Positions 1,463 through 61,995 of a stretch of DNA of 64,000 nt are shown piece by piece. Made by a program: the position numbers and the translations under genes. Below the pieces are notes generated by a model. It ran no database searches. It was given only the letters and a program-made list of their open reading frames with translations, and was not told where the DNA came from. The DNA is taken from NCBI GenBank assembly GCA_018900835.1, contig JAHIFQ010000015.1:50301-114300 (forward strand). Reading direction: 5' to 3'. Source of the DNA: Patescibacteria group bacterium. GTDB taxonomy: Bacteria > Patescibacteriota > Minisyncoccia > Minisyncoccales > PEYH01. Every line of letters starts with the position of its first letter. Within the stretch, counting starts at the first letter, position 1.

Positions 1463-1520
1463 ATTAGAAAAATTTAACGAGTAAACGAGTTTTAATTTTT
1501 CTTATACCCGCCTTGGGCGG

Positions 1521-1721
1521 GTGGCTAAATTAAAAATTAAACGAGAAAAATTAAAAACAAAAAACTATATTTGTATGCTATCAAAAATTGTTAAATTAGT
1601 CAATAAAAACAAAGATGTTATCTTGTTGGCTCTGATAATATTTTTGGCAAGTTTATTTATTTTTTCTCTGATTTGGATTTTCATAGAACTTGGGTCAAGC
1701 AAACCGATTGAGATATATTAA
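1521..1721 (+). CDS. small hydrophobic hypothetical protein (66 aa, 1 TM)
   Basis: ORF only; hydrophobic C-terminal half. GC hairpin cccgccttgggcggg lies just upstream (1508-1522). Confidence 0.2.
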   Translation: MAKLKIKREKLKTKNYICMLSKIVKLVNKNKDVILLALIIFLASLFIFSLIWIFIELGSSKPIEIY

Positions 1722-1730
1722 ATCCACTCA

Positions 1731-3053: not shown

Positions 3054-3121
3054 CATTCTTTTTTCTAAGGTGATAGAATATAATAAAGGTCAAAAGATAA
3101 TTAATAAATTACATTAAAAAA

Positions 3122-3571: not shown

Positions 3572-3577
3572 TAATAT

Positions 3578-4171
3578 ATGGATAACCAATTTATTGATTT
3601 AGAATATCAGAGGACTAAAATTGTCCGATATTTGGACAGTTTGGATGATGAAGAGAGGAGAAGGGCATTTCGTGCAATGGATTTGGCAGAGGAACAGCAT
3701 GCCGGACAATTTCGTTCAAGCGGGATTTCTTACATCATTCATCCTATCCGCGTTGCCCTTATTTTAGTTGAAGAATTAGGGATAGATGATAATGATTTGC
3801 TATGTGCCGGTTTTTTGCATGATGTCATAGAAGACGGGGTCTTGACAGTTACACGTCTAAATAATCTATTCGGTCCGGAGGTTAGCCGTATTGTTGAAAA
3901 ATTAACGCGTTATAAGTCGGTGGGTGAGTCGGAAGAAGAAAAATTAGAAAATAAGAAAAGAAAAGCGCAGGAGATAAGCAAGGCGGACGAAAATGTGCGG
4001 ATAATAAAACTTTGCGATGTTTTGGATAACGCTCGGTCAAATAACTTTATTCCCGAAACATCTCTGGATTTCCATAAGATTTTCCGTTGGAAGGAAGAAA
4101 CAAAATCTTATCTTCCGATCGCCGAAAAAACAAATCAAAGGATTTATGAGTTATTAAATCAGCTTGAATAA
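3578..4171 (+). CDS. HD-domain (p)ppGpp hydrolase-like protein (SpoT/RelA HD domain only; small alarmone hydrolase)
   Basis: HAGQFRSSGISYIIHPIRVALIL...GFLHDVIEDG...IIKLCDVLDNAR matches the Rel/Spo HD-domain motifs. No synthetase domain. Confidence 0.7.
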   Translation: MDNQFIDLEYQRTKIVRYLDSLDDEERRRAFRAMDLAEEQHAGQFRSSGISYIIHPIRVALILVEELGIDDNDLLCAGFLHDVIEDGVLTVTRLNNLFGPEVSRIVEKLTRYKSVGESEEEKLENKKRKAQEISKADENVRIIKLCDVLDNARSNNFIPETSLDFHKIFRWKEETKSYLPIAEKTNQRIYELLNQLE

Positions 4172-4538
4172 TATTATGATAGAAGAATATCGTTTTGGGA
4201 AAATGATGATTGAAGGCGATGAATATAATTATGATGTGGAAGTTGACTGGGAGGGAGAGGTTTTGGAATGGACGAGAAAGAACAGTCATATAATAGATAA
4301 GGAAGATATAGAAAGGGCGCTGGAAAAAGAGCCAGAGATAATTGTTGTCGGCACTGGCGAGTCAGGAGTCGCGCAGGTGACAGAGGACGCAAAACAAAAG
4401 TGCAAGGAAGCCGGAGTGGAGCTGATAATAGATATCACTGAAGAAGCAGTAAAAACATTTAATGTAATCTGCGCAGAGTCATTGGAAGAAGATGGTGAGC
4501 AAGCGGAGGTCATAGGGCTTTTCCATTTGACCTGTTAA
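4164..4538 (+). CDS. Mth938-like domain protein (DUF498 family)
   Basis: IIVVGTGESG ... C-terminal FHLTC is characteristic of Mth938-like proteins. Overlaps upstream gene by 8 nt. Confidence 0.55.
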   Translation: MNNIMIEEYRFGKMMIEGDEYNYDVEVDWEGEVLEWTRKNSHIIDKEDIERALEKEPEIIVVGTGESGVAQVTEDAKQKCKEAGVELIIDITEEAVKTFNVICAESLEEDGEQAEVIGLFHLTC

Positions 4539-4593
4539 TCATTAAGCAATTTTAATATGAAGAAAATTATTTTTGAGATATTAATTTTACATT

Positions 4594-5367
4594 ATGTCTG
4601 ATTATTACAAAGCAAAAAGGGATTATAGGATTTTTAAGCCGGGACAGTCGGGAGCGTTTAAAGTGAGCCGTTCAAAAATTGGCTTATTTATGGAATGTCC
4701 AAGGTGTTTTTATATGGATTGTTGCTTGGGCGTAAGCCGTCCGCCGGGATTTCCTTTTACTCTAAACAGCGCAGTTGACAAGCTTTTGAAAAAAGAATTT
4801 GATGTCCATCGGATTGCCAAAACCAGCCATCCTTTAATGGAAGAATATGGGATTGACGCAGTGCCGTTTCAAGACAAGCGGATTGACGAGTGGCGGGATA
4901 CGAGGAGGGGGATTCAATATATCCACGAGCCGACAAATCTTTTGATAATGGGCGCAATTGATGATATCTGGGTTAATCCGCAGGGAGAACTGCATATTGT
5001 GGATTACAAGGCAACATCAAAAGCTGGAGAAATAACATTGGATGCAGAGTGGCAGATTGGGTATAAAAGACAGATGGAGGTCTATCAATGGCTTTTTAGA
5101 CGAAATGAATTTAGTGTTTCTGATACATCATATTTTGTTTATTGTAATGGGAAGACCGATACAGAGGCATTTGATAAAAAGATTGAGTTTGATATTTCAG
5201 TAATTCCATACAAAGGAGATGACGCTTGGGTAGAACAAGCTATTCATGATATTAAAGAATGCCTTGAAAAGGACGCGATTCCGGAAATGGCGTCTGATTG
5301 CGATTATTGCAGTTATAGAAAAGCAGCTGCTCAAGAAAGCTACAAGTTTTCAAAGAAAAATAAATGA
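4594..5367 (+). CDS. Cas4-like PD-(D/E)XK nuclease with Cys cluster (paralog A)
   Basis: N-terminal CPRCF..CC, motif II GAIDD, motif III IVDYK, QxxxY-like QIGYKRQMEVY, C-terminal CDYC. Confidence 0.55.
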   Translation: MSDYYKAKRDYRIFKPGQSGAFKVSRSKIGLFMECPRCFYMDCCLGVSRPPGFPFTLNSAVDKLLKKEFDVHRIAKTSHPLMEEYGIDAVPFQDKRIDEWRDTRRGIQYIHEPTNLLIMGAIDDIWVNPQGELHIVDYKATSKAGEITLDAEWQIGYKRQMEVYQWLFRRNEFSVSDTSYFVYCNGKTDTEAFDKKIEFDISVIPYKGDDAWVEQAIHDIKECLEKDAIPEMASDCDYCSYRKAAAQESYKFSKKNK

Positions 5368-6029
5368 TAAAGATTTCGCCTAATTCTTTGAATCTGTATT
5401 TTGAATGTCCGTTTTGTTTTTGGCTGGAAAAGAATAGGGGAATCAAAAGACCTGCGCCGTTTCCTTATGAGTTAAACTTGGCGGTTGACCAGGTTTTGAG
5501 GCGTGATTTTGACAAACATAGAGCAAAAGATAGAAAGCATCCTTTACTTGAAGCAAACAATATTCCTGCCAAGCTTTTTTCAAACCAAAAACTTTTGAAC
5601 GAATGGCGGAACAAGTCCAAGGGATTGGAATATTATGACGAAAAAACAGGGGCAGTCATTTTCGGAGTGCTTGATGATGTGTTGGATTTTGGGAAAGGGA
5701 AACTGGCGCCGTTTGATTATAAGTCAACAGGAAGCAGTGTGCCCAAGGTCTATGACAGGTTTCAGCTTCAGATGGATGTTTACACTTTTCTTTTGGAGAA
5801 GAACGGATACGCCACTCCAAGAAAAGGCGTTTTAGTATTTTATACTGTTGATAAGGACGATTCTTTTGATGACCGATTGCCGTTCAAAAAAGAGATTCAT
5901 ATTATTGATACTGACCCATCATATATTTTAAGAACATTCCGAGAAGCGATTAAGTTTTTGAAAAAACCTGCTCCATTGGCTCACAGCCCGGAATGCGAAT
6001 TCGGCAGGTGGGCCGAGCTTTTAAAATAA
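5364..6029 (+). CDS. Cas4-like PD-(D/E)XK nuclease (paralog B), overlaps paralog A by 4 nt
   Basis: CPFCF, RPAPFPYELNLAVD, GVLDDV, FDYKSTG, QLQMDVY. Clear paralog of 4594-5367. Confidence 0.55.
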   Translation: MIKISPNSLNLYFECPFCFWLEKNRGIKRPAPFPYELNLAVDQVLRRDFDKHRAKDRKHPLLEANNIPAKLFSNQKLLNEWRNKSKGLEYYDEKTGAVIFGVLDDVLDFGKGKLAPFDYKSTGSSVPKVYDRFQLQMDVYTFLLEKNGYATPRKGVLVFYTVDKDDSFDDRLPFKKEIHIIDTDPSYILRTFREAIKFLKKPAPLAHSPECEFGRWAELLK

Positions 6030-6043
6030 TCTTTAGAATCACA

Positions 6044-6070
6044 ATGTTTAGAGGTTCAACCTCTAAACAT
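6044..6070. repeat. Palindromic element family 2 (ATGTTTAGAGGTT-C-AACCTCTAAACAT), copy A
   Basis: Perfect 13+1+13 palindrome. Identical copies at 7433-7459 and 42206-42232. Confidence 0.85.
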
Positions 6071-6077
6071 CGAATGA

Positions 6078-6100
6078 TTTTGGAAACCAGGTTTCCAAAA
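6078..6100. repeat. Palindromic element family 3 (TTTTGGAAACC-A-GGTTTCCAAAA), adjacent to family-2 copy
   Basis: 11+1+11 palindrome. Second copy at 46657-46679. Confidence 0.8.
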
Positions 6101-6180
6101 TGGTGGTTTCCAGAATGGCAACAAAAACCATACTTGACACCATTTTTACCATTTTAATTATTTTAATTAAATATTAATAT

Positions 6181-32184: not shown

Positions 32185-32904
32185 CTATTCTATTACTACC
32201 TCTTCAAAATCAACTAATTCTTTTTTAAACTTAAGCCAATTATTAACAAATTCTCGGCAACCATCTGCACCTTCCATTATTTTCTCTAAAAATTCCCTAT
32301 TTGTCAAAGAAGGGAAATTTTTCTTTCCTAAATAATCTGGATAACTTGACCATTTATATTTATTTTCTAAAAAATCAATTGCCGCATCTATGTTTTCTAT
32401 TTGCACTCCTTTGTTTTTCCATTCCAGAATTATTAATGACATTGGATTTGTGTGTATATAAACAAACACAGTTTCTAATCGCTCTTCTGTCTCGATACGA
32501 ACTATCCTGTATCTTCCTTGAAAAAGATGTCCATTCCTCTCATATTTTTTATTATAGTAACCACTATAACCTGCTCCAATCTTATGCATTAATTTGCTGA
32601 TTCCGTTATCGCAAGTTTGTTTTATTAACAAATGAATATGATTTGGCATTAGGCAAAATGCCAAAATTTCTACCAAAAGTTTCCTTTTCTTTCTATTCTC
32701 GCCGAGATCGTTTCTCGGCAGAGATAGCGGAGATAAGTTTCTTCTATAATCTCTGGATACTGGATTTTCGTCGTTAAATTCAAAAAGGTTGTTTATCATT
32801 CGAAAATAATCTTTATCGCCACGAAAAAGGTCTATCCCCTCTATTGTTCGGGTGACGATATGATATATTTCTCCATTTACTATTTCAGGTCTTTTTGATG
32901 GCAT
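32185..32904 (-). mobile_element. REP-associated tyrosine transposase (RAYT; IS200/IS605 TnpA Y1 HuH family)
   Basis: HuH motif LMPNHIHLLI and catalytic Tyr region YSGYYNKKYERNGHLFQGRY. Flanked by REP palindromes. Carries one REP in-frame (LPRNDLGE). Confidence 0.75.
32701..32719. repeat. REP family 1 copy inside RAYT coding sequence (in-frame)
   Basis: GCCGAGATCGTTTCTCGGC. Confidence 0.85.
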
Positions 32905-48009: not shown

Positions 48010-48564
48010 TTATAATTCAATCTCTTTGCTTATTTCCTTCATCGCATCTAAAGAAATCTTTACAAACTCTTCCAGCGACAGTCCGAGAAGCAGTTCACAT
48101 TTTCCAATTATCTCTCGGTTAGCTCCTCTGGCAAACGCCTTTTCCTTAAATCTATTCAGCACATTTTCCGTGGTAAGCTCTTTGATATTTTTTGACGGAA
48201 GAACCAAGGTAGAGGCAACAATTAATCCGCTTATCGGGTCGCAGACAAACAATGCTTTTGCCATAAGCCCTTCTGGCGCGATAGAGTGCGCTTCATTATG
48301 CGTTTTAACTGCCTCACAGATTTCTTCGCCGAAGCCCAAGTTCTTGAGCATTTCTGCGCCAATTAAAGAGTGCTTTAGCGGAGCGTCTTTTGTCTTTTCA
48401 TAATCAATATCATGCAACAATCCAGCAATCCCCCATTTTTCAGAATCTCCGCCCAATCGCTTGGCAAGCCCTCGCATAATCGCTTCAACTGCCAAACAAT
48501 GCTTGAGAAGATTGTTGTTAAACAAATTCTCTTTTAATAATTTATGCGCTTCCTCTCTGTTCAT
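48010..48564 (-). CDS. HD-domain phosphohydrolase (YqeK/HDIG-like)
   Basis: H…HD motif: HCLAVE … GLLHDIDYEKT. Confidence 0.55.
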   Translation of the reverse strand: MNREEAHKLLKENLFNNNLLKHCLAVEAIMRGLAKRLGGDSEKWGIAGLLHDIDYEKTKDAPLKHSLIGAEMLKNLGFGEEICEAVKTHNEAHSIAPEGLMAKALFVCDPISGLIVASTLVLPSKNIKELTTENVLNRFKEKAFARGANREIIGKCELLLGLSLEEFVKISLDAMKEISKEIEL

Positions 48565-49343
48565 AATAATGACTGGATAATTTTTGTTTTTGGATAATTT
48601 TCTATTTGTTTAAGATGGCTCTTGTTGCACCATTCCCAAAGCCGTTTAGCGCCGATAAACCCATCAATATCGTGATTAAAATCCTTCAATTCCTTAAACT
48701 CAAACTCCCCTCTTGCTGGCGAAAATTTATGATAGCAACTTGTCTTGCCTCCTCTAATTAAAATTTTTCCTCCTTTTACTCTTTTCTTTGCTCCACAAAA
48801 CTTACATTCCTCAAATTGGTCTAATCGAAGAATCCATCTTGTTTTTGCCATCCTTTTTGAAGGAACGGATTTGTTATAGGCGCCCATATATGCGGCAAGT
48901 TGCAAGGAATATTCGTCCCAAATGCCAGAACCGGTCTTAATATCTAAGACACCCAAAACACCTTTAATTTCAACTAATGCATCAAGAGTGCCTGCATACC
49001 GGTCTTCTAAATCATAAACCTTTCTTTCTACATCATTTTGGACATCCAAAATTTTTGCCTTGTACTCTTTTTTCCATTTTTTAAACGCTTGAATTGACGG
49101 AATAATTATCGGGTCAACTTCATATTCCTCCCCAGTTAAAAATTTTTCCACTGCCTGATGTGTAGCTGTCCCCCAACTGGCTGCATTATCAAGTGTTTGT
49201 TGCGCTGCCATAAAATTTGGCTGTTGGGCATAGTACCTTAAAAGCCCGGGCTTAAAGACCACATTCGTGATGCTCGTTACTCTTGGCAACCAATAACTCT
49301 CTATATCATATCCGTTTTTTTCTTTGAATTCCTGTAGGGACAC
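48561..49343 (-). CDS. PD-(D/E)XK-family nuclease with C-terminal zinc-ribbon-like Cys pairs
   Basis: GTLDALVEIKG, VLDIKTG, QLAAY (QxxxY), CKFCG…CYHK. Confidence 0.5.
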   Translation of the reverse strand: MSLQEFKEKNGYDIESYWLPRVTSITNVVFKPGLLRYYAQQPNFMAAQQTLDNAASWGTATHQAVEKFLTGEEYEVDPIIIPSIQAFKKWKKEYKAKILDVQNDVERKVYDLEDRYAGTLDALVEIKGVLGVLDIKTGSGIWDEYSLQLAAYMGAYNKSVPSKRMAKTRWILRLDQFEECKFCGAKKRVKGGKILIRGGKTSCYHKFSPARGEFEFKELKDFNHDIDGFIGAKRLWEWCNKSHLKQIENYPKTKIIQSLL

Positions 49344-49738: not shown

Positions 49739-49835
49739 AATCGATGGTGTTAATTATTAGAATATCTTATCATGGTTTCTCAAAAAGAAAAACCGCCGAC
49801 TATTCTGTTTCCAAAGATTCAGAAATTGTCGGCAG

Positions 49836-50090
49836 TCAGATGAGGCGGAGTTGGCCTCTTTCTCGCGAGTATGCAATCGCTGCTGCTCGCCTGAAGGCGC
49901 TTGTAGGGATTTTGTACGACATGTTCCTTTTGCCACTATCTGCGCTACTTGCGACAGAGACAGGCCTAAGCTTCCTCCCCCACGGCTTCCAAAAGGTGAC
50001 GGTTACAGGATAGGGGTTTTTATAGACCTCCATCTTGATGAGAATGCCTTCTTCCGTTTTATCAACAGATAAAACATCAGATAATGCCAT
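49836..50090 (-). CDS. GC-rich small protein (84 aa from ATG) with consensus promoter, strong SD and terminator
   Basis: AAGGAGG-7nt-ATG. ~52% GC. Terminator GCCGAC…GTCGGC+T-run at ~49790-49835. Several overlapping ORFs on both strands typical of a GC-rich insert. Confidence 0.5.
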   Translation of the reverse strand: MALSDVLSVDKTEEGILIKMEVYKNPYPVTVTFWKPWGRKLRPVSVASSADSGKRNMSYKIPTSAFRRAAAIAYSRERGQLRLI

Positions 50091-50143
50091 GACGATCACC
50101 TCCTTCTGGATTTTTCCAGATATAGTCCCAATGATCTGTCTTC

Positions 50144-50171
50144 ATTATACACCCAAAATCCCCATTGTCAA
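50144..50171 (-). promoter_or_regulatory. Near-consensus sigma70 promoter TTGACA-16-TATAAT (minus strand) driving the 84-aa gene
   Basis: Plus-strand TGTCAA at 50166-50171 and ATTATA at 50144-50149. Confidence 0.6.
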
Positions 50172-50173
50172 CC

Positions 50174-50202
50174 AAAATTACGAGGCCAGGCCTCGTAATT
50201 TT
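50174..50202. terminator. 14+1+14 perfect palindrome AAAATTACGAGGCC-A-GGCCTCGTAATTTT, terminator of upstream operon
   Basis: Immediately 3' of the stop of 50208-50831. A/T runs on both sides. Confidence 0.6.
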
Positions 50203-50207
50203 ATCTC

Positions 50208-50831
50208 TTATCTTAATGGTTTTTTGAAAAGATGTTTAGGATAAATTCTTTTAAGGAAATCTGTAAAGTCCTGCATTTCTTTTCTATAAGCTATTAATTT
50301 TTCTTGCGCTTTTTCTTCATTAAGCCCCTTAAAAACTTCTGCTCCGTTGCTCTCGATCTCAAAGCCATAACCAACTCCTCTGAATCCGAGCATATCTTCA
50401 AAATCACTTTTTCTTTCTCTATAAAAAAGGTTCAATAAATCTATAAGCTGTCCTTTCATTGCCATGCTTTGAGCTGTGACCCTTTCTCTAATCTCCTCAT
50501 TGTCATACCAGTCCTCGATTTCAGGGGTTTCGGGCTGAACCATAATCCCAGGGGTAAGCCTTGCGCCTTCTTCCAAGTGCCCCTCACAAGATTGAGTGGT
50601 TTTTATATCAAAGGCGTTAAACATAACTACTGCTTCTTTGATTCCTTCGTCAATCGGCATTCCGAGTTTATCCGTCATTTTATCAATCTTCTCTCTGATG
50701 CCTTTTAGTTCCTTATCAGCTTCTTTTTGCTCGTGTTCTCCTAATTCTTCCTTGGTCATTGTAAGTTCAGGCTTGCCGTCGTCTCTGCTGCTCACACCCT
50801 CATATTGTGGTTTTTCTAGACTTCTTGGCAT
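50208..50831 (-). CDS. Hypothetical protein, last gene of ATPase operon
   Basis: ORF only. Acidic N-terminus. Confidence 0.4.
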   Translation of the reverse strand: MPRSLEKPQYEGVSSRDDGKPELTMTKEELGEHEQKEADKELKGIREKIDKMTDKLGMPIDEGIKEAVVMFNAFDIKTTQSCEGHLEEGARLTPGIMVQPETPEIEDWYDNEEIRERVTAQSMAMKGQLIDLLNLFYRERKSDFEDMLGFRGVGYGFEIESNGAEVFKGLNEEKAQEKLIAYRKEMQDFTDFLKRIYPKHLFKKPLR

Positions 50832-50890: not shown

Positions 50891-53317
50891 TTATAAGTTT
50901 GACCTTTTAGCAATCTCTCTTTCCACTAAACTTTTTAATTTCCCGTATTTTAAACTGGAGATCTTTTTTATGGACTCCACCTGTTTTAAATTACCATCTT
51001 TCGGCTTATAGGTCATAAACTTGAATGCATTAGAAACCTTACCGTCAATTAACATTTTAATTACTAAATTGAAATTATCTAAATTAACAAGGTCAAATCG
51101 TGAAAACTCTGGTTCAAACTGTTTTTCTAAAAGTTCTGCATCATCAGCGCTAATCCTGTATGCCCCTATCGTCCCCACATTACCAAGCACAGCGTCTCTA
51201 ATCTTATCTTCTAATTGAGGGATATATTGATGCGCTAAAATAAGGTTTAGCCGATATTTCCGGGCTTCGGAAAGAATAGTGGTGATGCTGTCAGTGGTAA
51301 AATTCTGGAACTCATCAATATAAAGGTAGAAATCAGCTCTCTCCTCTTGTTTAACCCTTGCCCTTTTCATTGCTGCCATCTGCATCTTGGAAACCAATAT
51401 TAAACCAAGTAAGGAACTATTTACTTCGCCTGTTAGTCCCTTGGATAAATTAGCTAAAAATATCTTCTTTCCATCCATGATTTCCCCCAAATCAAAGCCA
51501 GAGTGAGATTGCCCTATTATGTTTCTCATCATCTCGTTCTCAATAAAGCGACCGACCTTAGAGACAACATAGCCCAGCATATCTGAACGAGTGGCTCCTG
51601 TTGTTTGTTTCCATTCTTTCAACCAGAAATTTTTTACTATTGGGTCTTCAACCTTCATTAATTTCTTTTGCATAAAGTCATCATCTGTGAACATCCTCGG
51701 AATCTCCACCAAAGTTCCTGGGTTATCTTTATCAGCCATTAGGGCTAACATCGCATTTCTCATATAGTGTTCAAACATCGGACCGATTATTTCTGGCGGA
51801 AAAAGTTTGTGAAAAATAGCAATCATTTCTTGAACAGCAAAATCTTTCTGTTCCGGAGTATCGTATTCAAGCATATTAAGTCCAATAGGCCTTTCCATAT
51901 CAGATGGCTCGAATAGCACCACATCATCTACTCTTTCTTTAGGAATGTTGGCTAAAGTGGCTTCAATAAGCTCACCATGAGGGTCTATTATTCCAAGGCC
52001 TTCGCCATTAAGAATGTCTTGGCGAATCATCTCCTGTAATAAACTGGTTTTGCCGGTTCCGGTTTGTCCGACAAGATAGAAATGGCGACGCCTGTCTTCC
52101 CTGGTTGAAAAATATATATCTTTTTCCTCGCCCCTGAAAGTGACTTGCCCAATCAGATTTAATCCCTTGTCCGGGAGCTCGCTTGGCGGAGCAGCCACCC
52201 CCGACTTAGCTGTTTTGATATAGGGGGTTTCAATATAATGAGTGGGAAAATGATAAATACTAGCTAACTCTTCAATATTGAGAATATTTCCTTGAATAGG
52301 ACTAAAGTTTCTAAAACTAAAATCATAAATGAGCTTCTTCAGCCGCTTCTTTTTGGCCATTACAACATCAAAGCCATTCATAGAATAAAGAGAGAACTGT
52401 CCGAATGCTCCTCGAAGATGGCCTAAAATTTCTTCAGCCCTTATCTGGGTCTCGGCTGCAGCCATCAACCTTATATTCACATCAAAAACCTGTTTTTGAA
52501 CTTTGCTCTGGATGGCCTCAATAATTTTTTCATCTACTGGCAGTTCTTTTTTATTGTCTTGTTCTGGTTTATTTTTTTTCTGGCCAGTGATAATACTGTT
52601 CAATTCAAATAAAAATTCCACCAACCAAGAGCGGGAGGATTCTGCGATAGCCAACTTGATAGGTTTTCCTTCTCGGATATTACCCAATATCTTATCGCCA
52701 ACCTTGGACCATTTCTTTTTGGTAAACGGTCTTATAACCACCTGCACTGCCGCGCCTTCATCGTGGCGAATCTTGCTTAGGGTATTGGTTATTGTGGCTA
52801 ATGCGTCTTTCTCTAAATTCTTATAAGTGCTAATCGGGAAAAAAGAAGGACCAGATAATTTCAAATAACAACCAGCTGTAGCGCCGGCAGGTTCAAATAT
52901 AGTATAGTCCTGGGGCACTTTTTCCACCAAAGCCCTTGAATAAACTCCTTGAACATACTTCTCAAACGCTGTTTCTAAAAATGTAGGGACTGCGACATAA
53001 AAAGATATATCTGACCCTCCAATTTGAGAAGCTATTTCAAAAGCCATTCTTGGCGGTCCGTAAACAGTTCTTTTCCAAAAATTCGGTGTTTTCAAAGATA
53101 AAAAGGTGCTGAAAATCTGCTCCATTTGGGCAATCAATACTTCTTCTCCTTGCTCTATCATTTCCTCTTTCTTAAATTCGTATTTTGGCATAGTCACTAA
53201 AAAAAGAGCCATATCAAAGCTCTCTAAAAGTCGCCCTTTATTCTTTATCTTATTATAGAAAAACATTCCGACTCCTAACGCGATTATGGCTAAAATAAAT
53301 ATTATTAGAAAAACCAT
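50891..53317 (-). CDS. Membrane-anchored FtsK/HerA-superfamily ATPase, VirD4/TraG (type IV coupling protein)-like
   Basis: N-terminal TM. Walker A LVGQTGTGKTSLL, Walker B YLYIDEFQNF, RKYRLNLILAHQYIPQL resembling the T4CP hhQSxxQL motif. 808 aa. Confidence 0.45.
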   Translation of the reverse strand: MVFLIIFILAIIALGVGMFFYNKIKNKGRLLESFDMALFLVTMPKYEFKKEEMIEQGEEVLIAQMEQIFSTFLSLKTPNFWKRTVYGPPRMAFEIASQIGGSDISFYVAVPTFLETAFEKYVQGVYSRALVEKVPQDYTIFEPAGATAGCYLKLSGPSFFPISTYKNLEKDALATITNTLSKIRHDEGAAVQVVIRPFTKKKWSKVGDKILGNIREGKPIKLAIAESSRSWLVEFLFELNSIITGQKKNKPEQDNKKELPVDEKIIEAIQSKVQKQVFDVNIRLMAAAETQIRAEEILGHLRGAFGQFSLYSMNGFDVVMAKKKRLKKLIYDFSFRNFSPIQGNILNIEELASIYHFPTHYIETPYIKTAKSGVAAPPSELPDKGLNLIGQVTFRGEEKDIYFSTREDRRRHFYLVGQTGTGKTSLLQEMIRQDILNGEGLGIIDPHGELIEATLANIPKERVDDVVLFEPSDMERPIGLNMLEYDTPEQKDFAVQEMIAIFHKLFPPEIIGPMFEHYMRNAMLALMADKDNPGTLVEIPRMFTDDDFMQKKLMKVEDPIVKNFWLKEWKQTTGATRSDMLGYVVSKVGRFIENEMMRNIIGQSHSGFDLGEIMDGKKIFLANLSKGLTGEVNSSLLGLILVSKMQMAAMKRARVKQEERADFYLYIDEFQNFTTDSITTILSEARKYRLNLILAHQYIPQLEDKIRDAVLGNVGTIGAYRISADDAELLEKQFEPEFSRFDLVNLDNFNLVIKMLIDGKVSNAFKFMTYKPKDGNLKQVESIKKISSLKYGKLKSLVEREIAKRSNL

Positions 53318-53322
53318 ATCAT

Positions 53323-53736
53323 TTACTTGGTAATTTTTTTATAAAAACCATCCTTGATTAGTAAATCATGAAAAATGTCAAGCATATAAGCGTCATCCAT
53401 TGCCCGAGCAGTTGCAACTGCAAAAGGAATTCCCTTTGTTTGCGCCAAGCCGAAAAGGCCCCTTAGCTTACCCTCTGCATCAAGCTTCTTGATATCCTGC
53501 GCTTTCTCCTCGGCTTCATCCTGCAATTGCGGAGTTGACTCTATTAATTCTATTTCTTCTTCCAATTTTGCCATTATTGCCTTTTCTTCTTCCGGAGAAA
53601 TCTTCTCTTTCTTTCCTTTTTCTATCTCCCTCTCAGCGGTCTCTATTTGTTCCGATTCAAAATCCTCGGCTAAACGCCTTTTAATTTCTTCTATATCACT
53701 AACTTTGCCCTCTCTTTTTTCAGGAATTTTCTCCAT
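53323..53736 (-). CDS. Acidic (Glu-rich) hypothetical protein
   Basis: ORF. 4-nt gap to ATPase gene. Confidence 0.35.
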   Translation of the reverse strand: MEKIPEKREGKVSDIEEIKRRLAEDFESEQIETAEREIEKGKKEKISPEEEKAIMAKLEEEIELIESTPQLQDEAEEKAQDIKKLDAEGKLRGLFGLAQTKGIPFAVATARAMDDAYMLDIFHDLLIKDGFYKKITK

Positions 53737-54142
53737 AAATTTAACAGCTTATAAACTATTCCTGCTCTCCTCCTTTTTCCTGTTCTGCCTGTCTCTTAAC
53801 GACGCCTTCATTAAAAATCTTCAACACGACTTTATTCTTACTTTATACCATTAAAACCCTGGAGTCAATAATCCTATTAAGCCCCTGTCCCTAAGTCCAT
53901 CTCTCACGCCTTCTGAATCAAAAAACTTAGACCCTCTTTCTTTTATGTCTGCCAAGATGCTCTCTGCGCTCATTTTCTCTTCCCTCGTCACCTCTTGACT
54001 GACATCTTTATCCAAAAATCGGAGCTTCTTTATCTGGATTAAATTGTTCTCTGTTTCTCATAATATGTGAATAATATGATTAAAAAATATAATTATTTAT
54101 CTGTAAGTACTCGCTTCCCGAGCACTTGTTCAACAAGAAACC

Positions 54143-54499
54143 TTACGCGCTGGACATCAGTTTTATTCCGAGTCCTGCAATTTTGCCTCCACCCAATATT
54201 AATATCCAGGCAAAGATAGACCAACTTATCAAGTTCATTAATTTGAACAAAATCCCCGGAGGAAAAATCTTTGTCAATTGGTCGCTTATTGTCTGCTCCA
54301 CCTGCTTTTGAATATCCTGCGCGCTCGTTGTGCTTAATGAACCATCCTTGTCTAATCCAAAATCAATCTCATCAGAACGGAACACCTGCGGAAGCGCCTG
54401 ATTGCCTTTAAAAATATTATACGATGAATACAAACCCCAAGAGATAATAAGGAGGCCTAATATCAAAAGAATAATTCCAATAATTTTATTGCCTACCAT
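54143..54499 (-). CDS. Small 2-TM membrane protein (pilin/VirB2-like topology, speculative)
   Basis: Hydrophobic segments at ~5-25 and ~85-110. Confidence 0.3.
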   Translation of the reverse strand: MVGNKIIGIILLILGLLIISWGLYSSYNIFKGNQALPQVFRSDEIDFGLDKDGSLSTTSAQDIQKQVEQTISDQLTKIFPPGILFKLMNLISWSIFAWILILGGGKIAGLGIKLMSSA

Positions 54500-54533
54500 A
54501 ATTTTGATTTAATAAATGATTAATAATAAATAA

Positions 54534-57500
54534 TTAGCCCGATTTGCGGAACTCGCAAATGTTTTTAAAGTCGCAGGATTGGCATTGCCAACCCGGAGCT
54601 GCCTTGAAATCGCTATTCTCAATCTTTTCAATTTTACATAAGACCTCTTGCTTGAATTTCTCTCTCTCTCGCTCATTGCTTTGAAAGGTAATTTTTTCGT
54701 TGTTCTGAAGATAATAATAACTTAAATATTCCGGCATTTTGCCAAAAATCTGTTCTCCTGCCAGTTGGTAAATAAGCAATTGTTCTTTCTCATCTTTCGT
54801 GAGCTTATCTTTGCCTTTGCCTGTTTTGTAATCAATTATTTCAAGTTCTCCATCAGGTAATTCATCAACTCTGTCTATTTTGCCTTTTATGCTATTATCC
54901 TTAATTTTCAAGAAAAAATCCAATTCTAAACATGGCTTACTATTCAAAGATAAAATCTTTGGCTGTTCTTTGAGAAATTTTTCCAAAAAATCTTTTAAAG
55001 TATCTTTCCCTAATTTAAAATATTCCTGCTTCTGTTTTTTATCCTCATACCACTCATCAATCCAATTTCTTTCATAAAAAACAATCATCTTCTTAAATTG
55101 CTCGGAAAAATCAATCTCTTTCTTAGCGCTTGGTTGAGCCGAGTTTTTGAAAAGCCCTTCTTGATTTTCTTCTTTGTTTTCAAGATAATCTCCTAAAAAT
55201 TGGCGTAAAGTATTGTGTATTGTTTTTCCAAAACTGAAAAATGCTGTGCCGATTCGCGGAATCTTTAAAATGTGGGAAAACTTGTACTGTAGGGGACATT
55301 TATCAAAAGCAGCGAATTGAGAATAGGAAAAATGCGGAGGGATATTATATTTTGTTCTTCTCTTCTCTTTTGTTTCTACTTGTCCTGATTCTAATGATAC
55401 TTTCTCTCCAGTTTGCTCTTCTGGCTTTTTAAAATTTATCTCTTCTAAAAATCTAGATAATTTTTTCTTTCGCGCTCCTCCATAATCATCCGCCGAGGTA
55501 AAGAACAGCCCTTTTTTCGCCCGAGTCATTGCTACATAAAACAATCTTCTTTCTTCCTGTAAATGGACATCTCCGCTCGGCACAATCTCTTTCACCAATT
55601 TACATGGAATTTCTATCGCCTCCTTTCTTTCATTGGTTGGAAATCTCCTATCCACAAGATTGATTATAAAAACGAATTTGAATTCAAGTCCTTTGGCAGA
55701 ATGTATGGTCATTATTTTCACCGCATCAGGACCCTTCTCTATATCCATTTCCAACGACCCGGCTTCCCCTGATTCAAGCTCCATATTCATTGCCATCATA
55801 AAATTGGCAAGGGTTGGCTCTGGGTTGCTTTCTTCAAATGATTTTATCTTTTTATAAAATTGGGTTATCAAATTAATATCCCTCTCGCTCTCCTGTTTTA
55901 CCATTTCCTTTAAATATCCTGAATCGTTCAAAAAAGCGAGAAAAACATCCCCTATGCTTTTCTCCCTTATCAATTTAGAATGTTTTTTAATCAAATCCAT
56001 TAGAAATCCAATTTTCTGTACTGTGTTTTTTGAAATCCCTGACACCAAAGGCAAATCCTGCAATGTTTCGTATGTTGATTGGGTTTTTTTCTTGCTGAAT
56101 TGATTTATTTTAACCAATTCTTCAATCCCCACTTCAAACAATGGCAAACTCAAAAGCCGATTCAAGGCAGAACTTTCATGATAATTATCAAGTAATCTGA
56201 AATAGGAAACAATGTCTAAAATAACTGGCTGGGAGTAAAGTCCTTTTGAAGCCAAAAATTCGTATGGAATTCTTTGTCTTTCTAATTCTTTGAAAAATGG
56301 AGTTGCCGAATCATTCGCCCTTACCAACACAACAAAATCAGAAAAACTTGTCTCTTTGTCTTTACGCATAATTTCAGTAATTTTCTTTGCAACGCCCTCT
56401 GCTTCTCTTCCAAGGGTTGCGAAATGAAGATGCTCAATCAGTCCCGCTGAATCATCTTTGGCTCTTAACTTTTTATCTATCTTTTTAAACGAGGAAAGCT
56501 CAATACCTTTTTCCTTTGCCTCAACAGCAATTTCTTTATCTTGATTCAATTGGTATTCAAGCCGATTTGGATTATTCAACTGGATAAAATTATACGCTAA
56601 ATCAAGAATATTCTGGGTTGAACGATAATTCTCCACAAGGATTATTTCTTTTGACTCTGGAAAGTCCTTTTTGAATTGCAGGACATTATTGAAAGACGCA
56701 CCCATGAAGCGAAACACACTTTGGTCATCGTCTGCGCAAACAGTAAGATTATTTTTCGGCTTAGCCAAAATTTTAATCAACTCATATTGCGCCCAATTAG
56801 TATCTTGAAACTCATCAATCAAAATATATTTAAATTGGCTTCTATATTTTTTCAAAATAGTTGGCCTCTCCTTAAATAATTTCAAGCAATAATTTATCAA
56901 ATCCCCGAAGTCCAAAGCATTGTTTTCCAAAAGCAAGCGTTGGTAAATATGATAAGCGTTAGCCAGTTCGCTTATTCTCTGCTGTTCTATTTCTATTTCT
57001 TTTTGGGATTTTTTTTCTTTTTTATCCATTACTCTACTCCCGAAAATACCATCATCAAAATTCCTCTTAATATCATCTGCGTATTGGAGATAATCCTCTG
57101 GAAAAATAGCTTCGTCTTTGCACTTGGCAAAATGATTAATCAAAGAATGAATAAATTTTGAAGGATTCCCAAGAGGACGGTAATAATCAAGATTAAATTT
57201 ATCTAAATTTTGCCTCACTAAAACCCAGCCCCCTGTTTGGTCAAGCAATTTGAAATTAGTAGGCAAGCCAATGTCTAATCCATGCTCTTTTAAAACTCTT
57301 TCGCAAAAAGAATGGAAAGTGGAAATCCAAAGGTCTAAATAACCAAAAGGCAAAAGCCGGTCAACTCTTTCCTCCATCTCGCCTGCTGCTTTTTCAGTGA
57401 ATGACAGCGCTAAAATTTCCTGTGATTCTGCTAATTTGTTCTCTATTAAATTGGCTATGCAACGAGTGATTACTGTGGTCTTGCCAGTTCCTGCTCCTGC

Positions 57501-57608
57501 AACAATTAAAAGAGGCCCTTTGTTATGCAAAACCGCGTCTTTCTGCTCTGGGTTCAATTGCTCAAGATATTTTGATTTTTTGTTTTCAAGAGGCATATTA
57601 TTGCTCAA
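54534..57608 (-). CDS. UvrD/PcrA-like SF1 helicase fused to C-terminal Cas4/AddB-like PD-(D/E)XK Fe-S nuclease
   Basis: Walker A AGAGTGKTTVITR, YILIDEFQDTN, helicase motifs through VMTIHSAKGLEF. C-terminal EIIDYKTGK, QLLIYQ, C-x18-CQSC-x5-C. Confidence 0.7.
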   Translation of the reverse strand: MSNNMPLENKKSKYLEQLNPEQKDAVLHNKGPLLIVAGAGTGKTTVITRCIANLIENKLAESQEILALSFTEKAAGEMEERVDRLLPFGYLDLWISTFHSFCERVLKEHGLDIGLPTNFKLLDQTGGWVLVRQNLDKFNLDYYRPLGNPSKFIHSLINHFAKCKDEAIFPEDYLQYADDIKRNFDDGIFGSRVMDKKEKKSQKEIEIEQQRISELANAYHIYQRLLLENNALDFGDLINYCLKLFKERPTILKKYRSQFKYILIDEFQDTNWAQYELIKILAKPKNNLTVCADDDQSVFRFMGASFNNVLQFKKDFPESKEIILVENYRSTQNILDLAYNFIQLNNPNRLEYQLNQDKEIAVEAKEKGIELSSFKKIDKKLRAKDDSAGLIEHLHFATLGREAEGVAKKITEIMRKDKETSFSDFVVLVRANDSATPFFKELERQRIPYEFLASKGLYSQPVILDIVSYFRLLDNYHESSALNRLLSLPLFEVGIEELVKINQFSKKKTQSTYETLQDLPLVSGISKNTVQKIGFLMDLIKKHSKLIREKSIGDVFLAFLNDSGYLKEMVKQESERDINLITQFYKKIKSFEESNPEPTLANFMMAMNMELESGEAGSLEMDIEKGPDAVKIMTIHSAKGLEFKFVFIINLVDRRFPTNERKEAIEIPCKLVKEIVPSGDVHLQEERRLFYVAMTRAKKGLFFTSADDYGGARKKKLSRFLEEINFKKPEEQTGEKVSLESGQVETKEKRRTKYNIPPHFSYSQFAAFDKCPLQYKFSHILKIPRIGTAFFSFGKTIHNTLRQFLGDYLENKEENQEGLFKNSAQPSAKKEIDFSEQFKKMIVFYERNWIDEWYEDKKQKQEYFKLGKDTLKDFLEKFLKEQPKILSLNSKPCLELDFFLKIKDNSIKGKIDRVDELPDGELEIIDYKTGKGKDKLTKDEKEQLLIYQLAGEQIFGKMPEYLSYYYLQNNEKITFQSNEREREKFKQEVLCKIEKIENSDFKAAPGWQCQSCDFKNICEFRKSG

Positions 57609-60577: not shown

Positions 60578-61369
60578 TCATTCTATCGTTTTATCAAAAA
60601 TATCCAAATAATCAATATTTTTGTCATCCAAAAGAAAGGGTTTTAATTTTTTCTTAAAATCCTTGATGTTTAATTTTACTTTTCTTTTATAAACATCAGT
60701 TAATTTTTCAAACAATTCTTTCTCTGTTTTAACTTTCATCTCAGAAAAAAGTTTTGGATGAGGTTTAACCCTATAAGACAGGAGCCAAGCAATATCGTAA
60801 AAATCTCTTGGCTGAATATCTTTTCTAGTGAGGGCGGCTCGAATCTTTTGAGATAAAAGAAAGCTTTTTGTGTTTGTAATAACAGGCCGAAGAAAGCCAA
60901 ATCTTTTTAAAATAACGACTTCCGTCTCTGGTCTGGTCTTTGGTGTAGTGTAATTAATTTTAACATTTAATTTTTCATTCTTATCGGTGGTAATTCCTAA
61001 ATCAAAAAGCAATTTGGGGAATTTAAAACTCCCAATTCCAGAATTATTTGTTTTCTTAAAATTGAATTCCGCTTCAAGATTCTCCTTTTTGAACTCCGAG
61101 GATATTTCCTTGAACAGCGACCTTATTTTCTCGTGAGAAAGACCTAAATTATCAAAATCTAAATCCTCGGAAAATCTATCTATATTCCTTAAAATTCTTA
61201 AACTAGTTTCTCCAATAAAAGAGAGCTTTTCCGATTTTGGCTGGTTATAGAGATGATAAATCGTCTTACATTGGAGATATTCTCTAATTAAAGCCCTTTT
61301 CTTTGTCTCGGGAACCTCTAAGCTTTTGCCTTCTTCTAAAATTGTTTGCCACAAAAATTCACTAATCAT
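60578..61369 (-). CDS. abiEii: AbiEii/AbiGii-family nucleotidyltransferase toxin (type IV TA / abortive infection)
   Basis: FIGETSLRILRNIDRFSEDLDF matches the GGTAL..R.S.DLD AbiEii motif. Confidence 0.6.
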   Translation of the reverse strand: MISEFLWQTILEEGKSLEVPETKKRALIREYLQCKTIYHLYNQPKSEKLSFIGETSLRILRNIDRFSEDLDFDNLGLSHEKIRSLFKEISSEFKKENLEAEFNFKKTNNSGIGSFKFPKLLFDLGITTDKNEKLNVKINYTTPKTRPETEVVILKRFGFLRPVITNTKSFLLSQKIRAALTRKDIQPRDFYDIAWLLSYRVKPHPKLFSEMKVKTEKELFEKLTDVYKRKVKLNIKDFKKKLKPFLLDDKNIDYLDIFDKTIE

Positions 61370-61995
61370 TTTTTATATTCTTTAAATAAGTTTTCCATAG
61401 ATAAATGGAATTTTTTGTTATTTGAAGAAACTAATTTTTGCCACTTCTTTAAATCGCTCCATTTGAAATCCTCGCCAATATCCAGACGCATTTCCTTAAA
61501 ACAATTCTTCGGATCAAAACCCTTTCCGAAGCTTCGTAGATATAAAAAATCAAATAGCGCTTTCTCCGGGACCGCTATCCTATAAGAGTATGGGGAATCA
61601 GCGTCTACCTTTCTATGACCAAAGAAAAGTTCTGGTTTGATATGACGATAAATAAATAAACCGTAGTTCTCCGTTTTGATTGTTAATGTTTTCTTAAGAG
61701 AGATAGAAGTGGTGGCAAAAGGAATATCTGGAATAATCCCATAATAATTTAAAGCGGTTTCGCAAGAGATATAAGAAGGAAAGAAAAAATCAGCCAAAAC
61801 TAAAACATCTTTTATCTGATAATCGCTAAATTTATAAATCCCTCTTTTCAATCTTTCCAGATGCCCTCTTTTTGTCCAGACGCTCAATTGGAAAATTATG
61901 GTTCTCCTATTTTCATTGGCGAACCATTTAAAAATATCATCTAATCTAAAAATAGGATAATCTTGTAATTTTTTCTTTAATTCAAAATAGGTCAT
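61366..61995 (-). CDS. abiEi: AbiEi-family antitoxin-like protein (N-terminal wHTH)
   Basis: 4-nt overlap upstream of AbiEii gene. ~200 aa with N-terminal basic wHTH-like region. Confidence 0.45.
   Translation of the reverse strand: MTYFELKKKLQDYPIFRLDDIFKWFANENRRTIIFQLSVWTKRGHLERLKRGIYKFSDYQIKDVLVLADFFFPSYISCETALNYYGIIPDIPFATTSISLKKTLTIKTENYGLFIYRHIKPELFFGHRKVDADSPYSYRIAVPEKALFDFLYLRSFGKGFDPKNCFKEMRLDIGEDFKWSDLKKWQKLVSSNNKKFHLSMENLFKEYKK

Follow-up and report, generated by a model that had tools for sequence, protein, structure and literature searches.

The 64-kb window (the whole stretch of DNA analyzed here, 64,000 nucleotides) encodes an 808-aa membrane-anchored ATPase that is one of the vertically inherited, chromosomal, relaxase-less orphan coupling proteins (T4CPs) of nearly all Patescibacteria. 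The conserved unit at this locus is the ATPase together with a 137-aa acidic protein. An earlier sequence-only reading had grouped five genes of this region into one possible apparatus. Comparison of related loci shows instead that a member of a known ATPase family and a repair-type helicase-nuclease lie side by side here by chance.

Organization of the ATPase locus

All minus-strand ORFs that the sequence-only reading had placed in this region are present in the ORF listing at the same coordinates. The region contains the following features:

54534-57608, minus strand: helicase-nuclease, 1024 aa, with Pfam domains UvrD-helicase, UvrD_C and PDDEXK_1
54143-54499, minus strand: small membrane protein, 118 aa, recognized by hydropathy; no family match
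53851-54015, minus strand: 54-aa ORF, part of a frameshifted remnant at 53878-54061
53323-53736, minus strand: acidic partner protein (family A), 137 aa; a homologous ORF lies upstream of the ATPase in relatives
50891-53317, minus strand: T4CP-family ATPase, 808 aa, membrane-anchored, assigned with Pfam, NCBIfam, AF2, Foldseek and hhalign
50208-50831, minus strand: acidic protein, 207 aa, with the motif TTQSCEGH; homologues in the closest relatives only
50174-50202, unstranded: palindrome with a 13-bp perfect stem and a 3-nt loop, just 3' of the 207-aa gene stop

The description of five co-directional genes was accurate in coordinates and strand, and it erred in counting the 54-aa ORF as a gene. 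This ORF is part of a frameshifted remnant of the N-terminal end of a 260-aa gene. Close relatives have that gene intact, ahead of the small ORF upstream of the ATPase. The tblastn alignments recover the first 61 of 260 residues at 53878-54061 on the minus strand, where residues 1-16 and 15-61 of L091_260/L092_259 align in separate frames (56-66% identity), and nothing of the remaining gene is present. The shared direction of the five genes is uninformative because approximately 45 consecutive genes around the ATPase lie on the minus strand. From ~13 kb to 64 kb of the window essentially all genes have this orientation, with the exception of LeuRS. An IS200-type transposase and an AbiE pair are present elsewhere in the window.

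The palindrome that had been called a terminator exists and its 13 bp pair perfectly. We infer the terminator role from the sequence, and the hairpin is likely a bidirectional terminator closing the ATPase transcription unit. Promoter-like matches in the region (27 versus 23.2 ± 5.0 in shuffled sequence) and terminator-like matches (9 versus 6.9 ± 2.6) are not in excess.

The ATPase belongs to the T4CP branch by sequence

The ATPase has a single N-terminal hydrophobic helix at residues 1-24 (modelled as a helix over residues 2-34), a Walker A motif (GQTGTGKT) at 417, a Walker B motif (YLYIDE) at 664 and the sequence QYIPQL at 697, so the membrane anchor, Walker motifs and Q-x-x-x-QL motif of the sequence-only reading were all seen. 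After the helix come a DUF8128 domain (~35-385) and, at ~390-720, a P-loop motor of the TrwB/VirD4 type that carries a helical insert. Profile searches bore out the VirD4/FtsK-HerA-like assignment, with Pfam T4SS-DNA_transf at 34.8 bits (cut-off 20.1), TrwB_AAD_bind at 33.9 bits (cut-off 20.5) and DUF87 at 32.8 bits, all above their cut-offs. Among proteins of solved structure, TrwB and DotL are nearest in sequence, with TrwB the best match. Curated T4CP equivalogs in NCBIfam did not recognize the protein at their cut-offs (TraD TIGR03743, 44 bits versus 366; CD1115-family NF045973, 42 bits versus 250).

Three other assignments were rejected. FtsK proper is excluded by the lack of an FtsK_SpoIIIE Pfam match, the lack of a gamma domain and the single TM helix. 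VirB4 is excluded by the lack of an AAA_10 or CagE_TrbE_VirB Pfam match, and the HerA equivalog by scores of 17 bits against NF040819 (cut-off 970) and 17-22 bits against the PADLOC HerA profiles. The ATPase is instead a member of the phylum-wide family of orphan T4CP homologues on Patescibacteria chromosomes that PMC12102498 describes. Within the FtsK/HerA superfamily it falls in the VirD4-like T4CP branch, and it is of the Gram-positive/archaeal plasmid type with a DUF8128 N-domain.

The predicted structure combines a VirB4-like N-domain with a coupling-protein motor

The AF2 model of the full-length ATPase is of moderate quality (pLDDT 70.8, pTM 0.47), and the N-domain modelled separately reached pLDDT 83 and pTM 0.83. 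A Foldseek search of the PDB with the N-domain model returned 14 TrwK/VirB4 chains as the only significant matches (E 4e-7 to 2.5e-4), with modest TM-scores of 0.40-0.46. In these models DUF8128 adopts a VirB4-N-domain-like fold. The C-terminal half matched Cag-beta, DotL, TrwB and HerA; matches to the first three had E values of 2e-7 to 2e-6 over ~370-420 columns and TM-scores normalized to the target of 0.44-0.49.

TrwB of R388, Cag-beta and DotL share the P-loop motor fold and helical insert with the window ATPase, but they match its C-terminal half only and resemble it in sequence solely around the P-loop. None of the three is known to have a large N-domain of the VirB4 type, and each has two TM helices. 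VirB4 (TrwK of R388) resembles the window ATPase in N-domain fold, overall length and two-domain plan, whereas alignment to a genuine Gram-positive VirB4 is limited to the P-loop. In that hhalign comparison with the VirB4 of the Bacillus subtilis plasmid NZ_CP032854 the probability was 2.4% over 36 columns. The DUF87 protein in the T4CP slot of the same plasmid aligned at 99.8% over 669 columns, N-domain included, with 25% identity. Gram-positive plasmid T4CPs (NZ_CP032854 and the pLS20-size CP120602) have the same N-domain and motor architecture as the window ATPase. On NZ_CP032854 this T4CP-slot protein, which is homologous along its full length, is encoded immediately before a Replic_Relax relaxase; the operon also holds TcpC, TcpE and an AAA_10 VirB4. 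In contrast to this placement in a conjugation operon, the window ATPase has no relaxase, TcpC, TcpE or VirB4 nearby and is vertically inherited. The close relatives outside Patescibacteria that have informative context are all conjugation T4CPs.

The ATPase is conserved across the phylum at housekeeping level

More than 1,800 homologues are 65-80% identical to the ATPase, and at E<1e-30 the family counts 5,566 representatives of clusters built at 50% identity. More than 600 GTDB matches cover the full length at 39-69% identity, and the matches listed include Staskawicz-, Doudna-, Uhr-, Magasanik-, Nomura-, Peregrini-, Berkel- and Levybacteria. Only 10 partial relatives were detected in a search of 2.9 million viral contigs. 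Between genome pairs the ATPase is 68-72% identical, compared with 47-67% for EF-P, 52% for TyrRS and 58-66% for Mur ligase. The family is conserved at the level of housekeeping genes and above EF-P or TyrRS. Its neighbors in relatives include DnaA/DnaN, DnaX, EF-P, Map and aminoacyl-tRNA synthetases; dnaX lies near the ATPase at 26 of 80 loci, and a map/secY-type context also recurs.

These properties correspond to the orphan T4CPs counted by Quinonero-Coronel et al. (2025, PMC12102498), which are described there as chromosomal, relaxase-less, far from virB4 and near-universal, like the window ATPase. According to that census, 2,918 of 3,035 Patescibacteria genomes (96%) carry a total of 5,713 VirD4-type T4CP homologues, of which only 148 are near virB4. 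The NCBI name of these proteins is 'type IV secretion system DNA-binding domain-containing protein'.

A small protein accompanies or is fused to the ATPase

The 137-aa protein is acidic (35 D/E, 25 K/R), has no TM segment, matches no Pfam family and ends in a conserved C-terminal motif. The stop codon of its gene is 5 bp before the ATPase start. A homologous ORF was found directly upstream of the ATPase at loci L001, L002, L004, L091, L092 and L093. Across the 72 assessable GTDB loci, an ORF of this type (family A) adjoins the ATPase in 24, and a second small family (family B), unrelated to family A, adjoins it in 24. At 8 more loci, family A is joined in frame to the N-terminus of the ATPase (E 1e-7 to 2e-9). 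These fusion proteins lack a TM helix, compared with exactly one in 64 of 74 full-length ATPases, and the small-protein domain appears to replace the membrane helix in them.

The 207-aa protein is 55% identical to the product of a 203-aa gene just downstream of the ATPase at L091 and 31% identical to that of a 255-aa gene at L092. It matched nothing in Pfam or PADLOC and had no homologue in the 80 GTDB ATPase loci. Its gene accompanies the pair in close relatives only.

The helicase-nuclease and the 118-aa protein are separate from the ATPase unit

Pfam detected UvrD-helicase (260 bits), UvrD_C (170) and PDDEXK_1 (116) in the 1024-aa protein, as anticipated by its description as a UvrD-helicase/Cas4-like-nuclease fusion. 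PcrA is the closest solved relative (297 bits), followed by AdnB (136) and AddA (122). The nuclease domain has a PD-(D/E)XK core and four cysteines in the order C...CxxCx5C (C771...C1009-x2-C1012-x5-C1018), from which an Fe-S cluster is predicted, and the protein scores 54.8 bits against TIGR00372, just under the cut-off of 65. The CxxC-x5-C part of the proposed C-x18-CxxC-x5-C signature is present at 1009-1018; the x18 spacing is not, because C991 and C1009 are separated by x17. The first cysteine of the Cas4/AddB-type cluster is more likely C771 (in DKCPLQY) than C991.

Identification of the protein as simply AddA was rejected (addA_Gpos, 203 bits versus a cut-off of 708), as was RecB (recB, 156 versus 696) and the PcrA equivalog (469 versus 911). 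No large AddB-like partner ORF lies in the 64-kb window. Gabija was also rejected; the GajB profile (324 bits) reports a generic UvrD core, and no GajA was found among the 7 proteins scanned with PADLOC. The SF1A core is closest to that of PcrA/UvrD, the C-terminal RecB-type nuclease is like that of AddA and AdnB, and the cysteine pattern is like that of Cas4 and AddB, but every equivalog cut-off was missed. The protein is a single-chain SF1 PcrA/UvrD-like helicase fused to a Cas4-like PD-(D/E)XK nuclease. It is a DNA-repair-type gene product unrelated to the ATPase unit.

The 118-aa protein had been likened to VirB2 pilins. Its two hydrophobic segments, one at each end, were confirmed by hydropathy, but no pilin (TrbC/VirB2, T4SS_pilin) or other family matched even at E <= 1. 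No homologue was found near the ATPase, either in the 80 GTDB loci or in the closest relatives. It is a lineage-specific small membrane protein outside the ATPase unit.

The five genes do not form one system

The neighborhood was compared over 10 kb around the ATPase in 80 species-level GTDB loci of ATPase relatives. A helicase-nuclease orthologue occurs within 10 kb at a single locus (L087, at a distance of 2.2 kb), and the 118-aa and 207-aa proteins occur at 0 of 80. Genomes in which the ATPase is 78-80% identical have the order dnaA-dnaN-260aa-small ORF-ATPase-203aa and contain neither the helicase nor the 118-aa gene at this position. The proposal that the five genes work together, as a minimal machine for DNA uptake/transfer or as an anti-phage system of the HerA/helicase-nuclease type, fails because the neighborhood is not conserved. 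Besides L087, it could draw on the short gaps and common strand, a weak PADLOC match of the ATPase core to mad8 (50 bits), the low HerA scores and the GajB-profile matches of the helicase. The arrangement is not shared even by relatives with 78-80% ATPase identity, nor by 79 of 80 species-level loci, the common strand extends over ~45 genes, GajB profiles recognize UvrD-like helicases generally, PADLOC found no GajA, NurA or other partner, one member is a pseudogene remnant, and the ATPase is conserved like a housekeeping gene rather than patchy as is typical of defense genes. By comparative genomics the one-apparatus reading is already refuted, and we regard it as extremely improbable.

Proposed role of the ATPase and its partner

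The T4CP-branch ATPase and its small partner, encoded beside an independent helicase-nuclease, probably form a coupling or translocating motor, possibly for a T4SS elsewhere in the genome. The conserved transcription unit comprises the genes for the 137-aa protein, the ATPase and, in close relatives only, the 207-aa protein, and is likely closed by the 50174-50202 hairpin; the helicase-nuclease, the 118-aa gene and the remnant are its neighbors in this lineage only. The ATPase is predicted to assemble into a hexameric ring on the cytoplasmic side of the membrane, anchored by its single TM helix, and the small protein would bind the N-terminal part of the ATPase and serve there as adaptor or regulator. 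In fused forms, the small-protein domain would stand in for the helix. CagZ is a helical protein, and its gene adjoins that of Cag-beta. The title of PDB entry 8DOL names Cag-beta as regulated by this small protein, a precedent for a small partner. ATP hydrolysis would recruit a macromolecule (most likely nucleic acid or protein) to a membrane channel or drive it there, and the most probable channel would be the Patescibacteria T4SS (VirB4 and VirB2-like pilins) encoded elsewhere in the genome. We infer the coupling to a T4SS from family membership, because the 64-kb window contains no T4SS gene (VirB4, VirB6, pilin family), relaxase or oriT-like feature.

It is possible, though rather unlikely, that the ATPase has a T4SS-independent core role as an exapted membrane nucleic-acid translocase, either a DNA/RNA import motor or an FtsK-like chromosome-handling protein, with the small protein as its regulator. 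The near-universal distribution, the conservation above EF-P or TyrRS and the recurrent replication and translation neighbors (dnaA-dnaN, dnaX, map/secY-type) are consistent with such a role. The census reports VirB4 in 80% of genomes, fewer than carry T4CP homologues, and T4CP homologues are seldom near virB4 (PMC12102498); the frequencies as given there are at least as compatible with a T4SS-independent role, and the census leaves room for exaptation. Host-RNA uptake by a cultivated Patescibacterium, reported in a 2026 preprint (10.64898/2026.06.21.733656), also points in this direction. Against it, ComEC, ComEA and DprA are not consistently adjacent to the ATPase, nor are division genes apart from a distant ftsZ. 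The ATPase is without the FtsK_SpoIIIE match and gamma domain, TM7x carries its own annotated ftsK (PMC10768705), and the close relatives outside the phylum with informative context are all conjugation T4CPs.

We consider it improbable that the small-partner and ATPase pair is a cytoplasmic motor that pulls host RNA or DNA in through a T4SS/pilus channel or another pore. A coupling protein run as an importer in this way would account for the near-universality, the housekeeping-level conservation and the missing relaxase.

It is very doubtful that the ATPase is a leftover T4CP gene of a decayed integrative conjugative element with no present cellular role, as its plasmid-borne closest homologues outside Patescibacteria and the transposase and AbiE pair in the window might suggest, since the ORF is intact and strong purifying selection acts on it phylum-wide, no relaxase, integrase or flanking tRNA was found at the locus, base composition matches that of the surroundings, and relatives consistently carry the gene among housekeeping genes.

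Implications for Patescibacteria

The main outcome for the five-gene idea is negative, and the suspected new system is not supported. The 2025 census (PMC12102498) had already found orphan homologues of coupling proteins in 96% of Patescibacteria genomes. That work is a census only, and its available part does not describe the DUF8128/VirB4-N-like domain, the small partner families or the fusions. Our analysis adds the predicted VirB4-like fold of the N-domain, the almost constant association of the ATPase with a small partner, drawn from two or more unrelated families, and a partner-ATPase fusion in one clade that appears to replace the membrane anchor. Patescibacteria account for much of bacterial diversity, and the route by which they gain macromolecules from their hosts is a standing question. 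A relaxase-less coupling-protein homologue kept by almost all of them is an obvious candidate for a part in host-macromolecule acquisition.

Genes at the locus and their conservation

Every ORF named in the sequence-only reading was found, all on the minus strand, and the palindrome described at the end of the series is real, with a perfect 13-bp stem.

Genes and sites at the locus (all ORFs confirmed)
54534-57608, minus: UvrD/PcrA-like helicase-nuclease, 1024 aa
54143-54499, minus: 118-aa ORF
53851-54015, minus: 54-aa ORF
53323-53736, minus: 137-aa acidic partner of the ATPase
50891-53317, minus: ATPase, 808 aa
50208-50831, minus: 207-aa ORF
50174-50202: perfect palindrome, 13-bp stem, after the ORF series

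The ATPase features are as had been described: a single hydrophobic helix at the N-terminus, a Walker A motif (GQTGTGKT, 417), a Walker B motif (YLYIDE, 664) and QYIPQL (697). Searches of Pfam, NCBIfam and PADLOC assigned no family to any of the 137-, 118-, 54- and 207-aa proteins. The segment 53878-54061 (minus), which includes the 54-aa ORF, is a frameshifted remnant of a 260-aa gene with a HEVRH motif and retains the first 61 residues of that gene. An intact 260-aa gene stands before the small ORF and the ATPase in the two closest relatives, L091 and L092 (ATPase 78-80% identical), where the gene order is dnaA-dnaN-260aa-small ORF-ATPase-203aa. The 207-aa protein is a homologue of the 203-aa gene downstream of the ATPase in L091 (55% identity).

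Five of these genes had been proposed to form one DNA-transfer or defense system. Their shared orientation is weak evidence because the minus strand holds nearly all genes between ~13 kb and 64 kb of the window. Promoter-like and terminator-like matches show no excess over shuffled sequence, and the region is even in base composition. A GTDB scan using one genome per species returned at least 600 ATPase matches, and 80 loci were taken from the matches listed. The ATPase in these loci is full length, 39-69% identical and distributed over many Patescibacteria lineages. A true orthologue of the helicase-nuclease lies within 10 kb on either side of the ATPase in 1 of these 80 listed loci (L087), and homologues of the 118-, 54- and 207-aa proteins in none of them over the same distance. 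The ATPase neighbors in other relatives are EF-P, PNPase, Mur ligase or aminoacyl-tRNA synthetases. Since the neighborhood is not conserved in relatives, the helicase-nuclease and the 118-aa gene adjoin the ATPase in this lineage only, and the five genes proposed as one system are adjacent by chance. The 118-aa protein had been likened to VirB2 and pilins; it matches no pilin family and is not kept near the ATPase in relatives, and was rejected as a pilin.

A self-contained unit (49790-50171, minus) lies directly after the palindrome.

Elements of the 49790-50171 unit
50171-50144, minus: perfect sigma-70 consensus, TTGACA-16-TATAAT
49836-50090, minus: 84-aa ORF with a strong AGGAGGTGA ribosome-binding site
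~49790-49835, minus: hairpin and T-run

The GC content of the unit is 48-54% versus ~37% around it, its RNA fold z-score is -2.67, and public gene calls annotate nothing there. It has no Pfam match, and the GC-rich stretch at 49.8-50.1 kb gave no Rfam match. The unit may encode a small basic protein or yield a structured RNA. Elsewhere in the window, an IS200-type Y1 transposase (32185-32904, minus; 239 aa, 51.8 bits) adjoins a PEP-utilizing enzyme gene.

The ATPase is related to type IV coupling proteins

The domain calls of the sequence-only reading were good for both large proteins: a T4CP/HerA-like ATPase and, by Pfam, a UvrD helicase with a PDDEXK nuclease. The ATPase scored above the Pfam cut-offs for T4SS-DNA_transf, TrwB_AAD_bind and DUF87, all in its C-terminal half, and fell far under the NCBIfam equivalog cut-offs for TraD, CD1115, HerA and CedD. 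No FtsK domain was found, which argues against FtsK proper; a role as an FtsK replacement was also tentatively set aside, and TM7x carries an annotated ftsK (PMC10768705).

Public databases tag the N-terminal half as PF26449, DUF8128, and a literature search found no paper mentioning this domain. Foldseek with the full-length AF2 model (pLDDT 70.8) ranked R388 TrwK/VirB4 at the top over the whole length, followed by Cag-beta, DotL, TrwB and HerA over the C-terminal half only. A model of residues 30-385 (pLDDT 83, pTM 0.83) gave significant matches to TrwK/VirB4 only (14 chains, E 4e-7 to 2.5e-4, TM-score 0.40-0.46), which indicates that DUF8128 has a VirB4-N-domain-like fold.

By tblastn, plasmids of Bacillus, Streptomyces and haloarchaea carry full-length ATPase homologues, aligned over residues 38-786 at 23-29% identity. 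The homologue on B. subtilis plasmid NZ_CP032854 is immediately upstream of a Replic_Relax relaxase, which is followed by genes for TcpC, a protein with a TcpE-family annotation and an AAA_10 VirB4. The ATPase aligned by hhalign to the protein in the T4CP slot of this plasmid at 99.8% over 669 columns, N-domain included, and to its VirB4 at 2.4% over the P-loop only. On the latter result, and because the ATPase has no AAA_10 match, the VirB4 identity to which Foldseek had pointed over the full length was rejected. The plasmid homologues and the profile comparison indicate that the ATPase is a homologue of the Gram-positive/archaeal T4CP type, which itself has a VirB4-like N-domain. The protein falls in the T4CP clade as a membrane-anchored ATPase whose N-domain is predicted to be VirB4-like.

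Six family members from the representative search (P0141, P0148, P0149, P0153, P0159 and P0164) are 1,600-2,000 aa long and have a long uncharacterized C-terminal extension after a complete ATPase. Locus L061 has a second ORF in tandem with the ATPase (1128-3587, 3587-6163), a candidate paralogue from the iterative small-protein HMM search that extended into ATPase ORFs, and L054, L070 and L082 have a candidate paralogue within 10 kb. These may be connected with the figure of about two T4CP homologues per genome given in the literature.

A small partner is coupled to the ATPase

The conserved partner of the ATPase is the ORF immediately upstream. The 137-aa protein is acidic, lacks a TM segment and is separated from the ATPase by a 5-bp gap. 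Its identity to the ORFs upstream of the ATPase in L001, L002, L004, L091, L092 and L093 is 37-63%, and it has in common with them the C-terminal motif MNDPYxLDxxHDxL. A wide search retrieved just 13 close homologues, a limit set by its reliance on exact word matches. The rate of evolution is much higher in the partner than in the ATPase.

The upstream ORF was assessable in 72 of the GTDB loci among the matches listed. Family A, to which the 137-aa protein belongs, is adjacent in 24, fused in frame to the ATPase N-terminus in 8 and nearby in 1. Family B (~176 aa, motif WLKxIPGVNKFFLEQEAKIKTDKI) is adjacent in 24 and nearby in 1. The other 14 loci have another or no partner, and several of them have an unclassified 120-180-aa ORF directly upstream. 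An hhalign probability of 0.2% marks families A and B as unrelated.

The eight fusions come from Nomurabacteria/Paceibacterota (L057, L063, L069, L070, L072, L075, L080 and L081). Their ATPase ORFs are 908-932 aa long, and the partner domain is recognized in them with E-values of 1e-7 to 2e-9. The iterative HMM search for the small protein was run with ATPase ORFs left out; without that exclusion it extended into them because the fusions are genuine. Exactly one TM helix is present in 64 of 74 full-length family members and none in the fused proteins, so the partner domain sits where the membrane anchor would be. The fusions provide Rosetta-stone evidence that partner and ATPase are likely to work together. 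The 5-bp gap here and the fusions elsewhere demonstrate tight coupling of the ATPase to its small acidic partner. The fused gene directly follows map (methionine aminopeptidase) in four of the eight loci.

Other proteins recur in particular clades. The family-B clade (L019-L078) has a conserved ~213-aa protein after the ATPase (27/80 loci among the matches listed; motif EGVFDGQNMVGPDGKQYSIPANYASKSKLVEGD; no Pfam family), examples being L021 13305-13940 and L043 12994-14559. DnaX follows it in 26/80 loci among the matches listed, and CysRS is often upstream. The 207-aa protein of the window was considered as its counterpart and rejected, with no HMM match. Staskawicz/Nealson-like relatives (L009-L017, L002, L004 and L093) have a ~200-aa protein before the small partner ORF (L002 6969-7577, for example; 9/80 loci among the matches listed). 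This protein has a single TM helix at its N-terminus and falls in no Pfam family. It is absent at the equivalent position in the window genome.

The helicase-nuclease and defense

The helicase-nuclease contains the Pfam domains UvrD-helicase, UvrD_C and PDDEXK_1 and the motifs GAGTGKT (38) and DEFQD (265). Its proposed Fe-S signature stands for CxxC-x5-C at 1009-1018 and fails for the spacing of C991 to C1009, which is 17, not 18; C771 is more likely than C991 to be the canonical fourth cysteine of a Cas4/AddB-type cluster. Among solved proteins it is nearest to PcrA (297 bits) and UvrD, with AdnB (136) and AddA (122) far behind. The protein scored below every NCBIfam equivalog cut-off, including that for AddA, and the window has no partner gene; an AddAB/RecBCD identity was rejected on these grounds.

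A HerA/helicase-nuclease anti-phage system had also been suggested. PADLOC gave generic core matches without partner genes; the ATPase matched mad8 weakly and HerA faintly. A defense role for the locus is poorly supported. Two other features lie nearby. At 60578-61995 (minus), ~3 kb upstream of the helicase-nuclease, the gene for a 263-aa AbiEii nucleotidyltransferase toxin (70 bits) overlaps a 209-aa ORF that matches AbiEi faintly; the two look like a type IV toxin-antitoxin/abortive-infection pair. A stand-alone Cas4-like PD-(D/E)XK nuclease of 260 aa, with cysteines clustered at its C-terminus (48561-49343, minus), lies ~1.5 kb beyond the ATPase unit, with no CRISPR context seen.

Inheritance and proposed role of the ATPase

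The ATPase family comprises 5,566 cluster representatives at E<1e-30, and more than 1,800 close homologues are 65-80% identical. Between the same genome pairs, identity is 68-72% for the ATPase, 47-67% for EF-P, 52% for TyrRS and 58-66% for Mur ligase, and invariant residues occur along the entire ATPase length. A search of 2.9 million viral contigs found 10 relatives, all partial and restricted to the ATPase domain, which argues against a phage origin. The 64-kb window contains neither a relaxase nor an integrase, and T4SS genes and flanking tRNAs are also absent from it. The ATPase is vertically inherited, strongly conserved and without a relaxase.

We propose that the ATPase would act as a hexameric motor at the membrane. 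The partner may bind its N-region as an adaptor or regulator, by analogy with CagZ/Cag-beta (PDB 8DOL), where a small protein regulates a T4CP. The motor would deliver or drive a macromolecule, and its most probable route would be the T4SS that Patescibacteria encode at another locus. The main alternative, which we consider less likely, is an exapted translocase that works independently of a T4SS in nucleic-acid import or chromosome handling. In a survey of 3,035 Patescibacteria genomes (Quinonero-Coronel et al. 2025, PMC12102498), VirD4-type T4CP homologues number 5,713 in 2,918 genomes, 148 of them near virB4, and VirB4 was found in 2,417 genomes. The wider distribution of T4CP homologues than of VirB4 favors this alternative, as do the replication genes that neighbor the ATPase in relatives. 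The survey authors consider exaptation possible and describe the S. epibionticum T4CP homologue as non-essential, unlike other T4SS genes; this dispensability would also fit if that homologue is a DUF8128 member. A decayed ICE is poorly supported.

The ATPase, named 'type IV secretion system DNA-binding domain-containing protein' by NCBI, belongs to the orphan T4CP set of PMC12102498. It is a new member of a known, functionally unexplained orphan T4CP family of Patescibacteria. The VirB4-like N-domain, the conserved small partner and the fusions lacking a membrane anchor were not found described in the parts of the literature consulted. In a 2026 preprint (10.64898/2026.06.21.733656), a cultivated Patescibacterium is reported to take up host RNA, with the import mechanism unresolved and T4SS pili possible. 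The interest of the finding is moderate to low as it stands, and would be raised only if the ATPase were an import motor.
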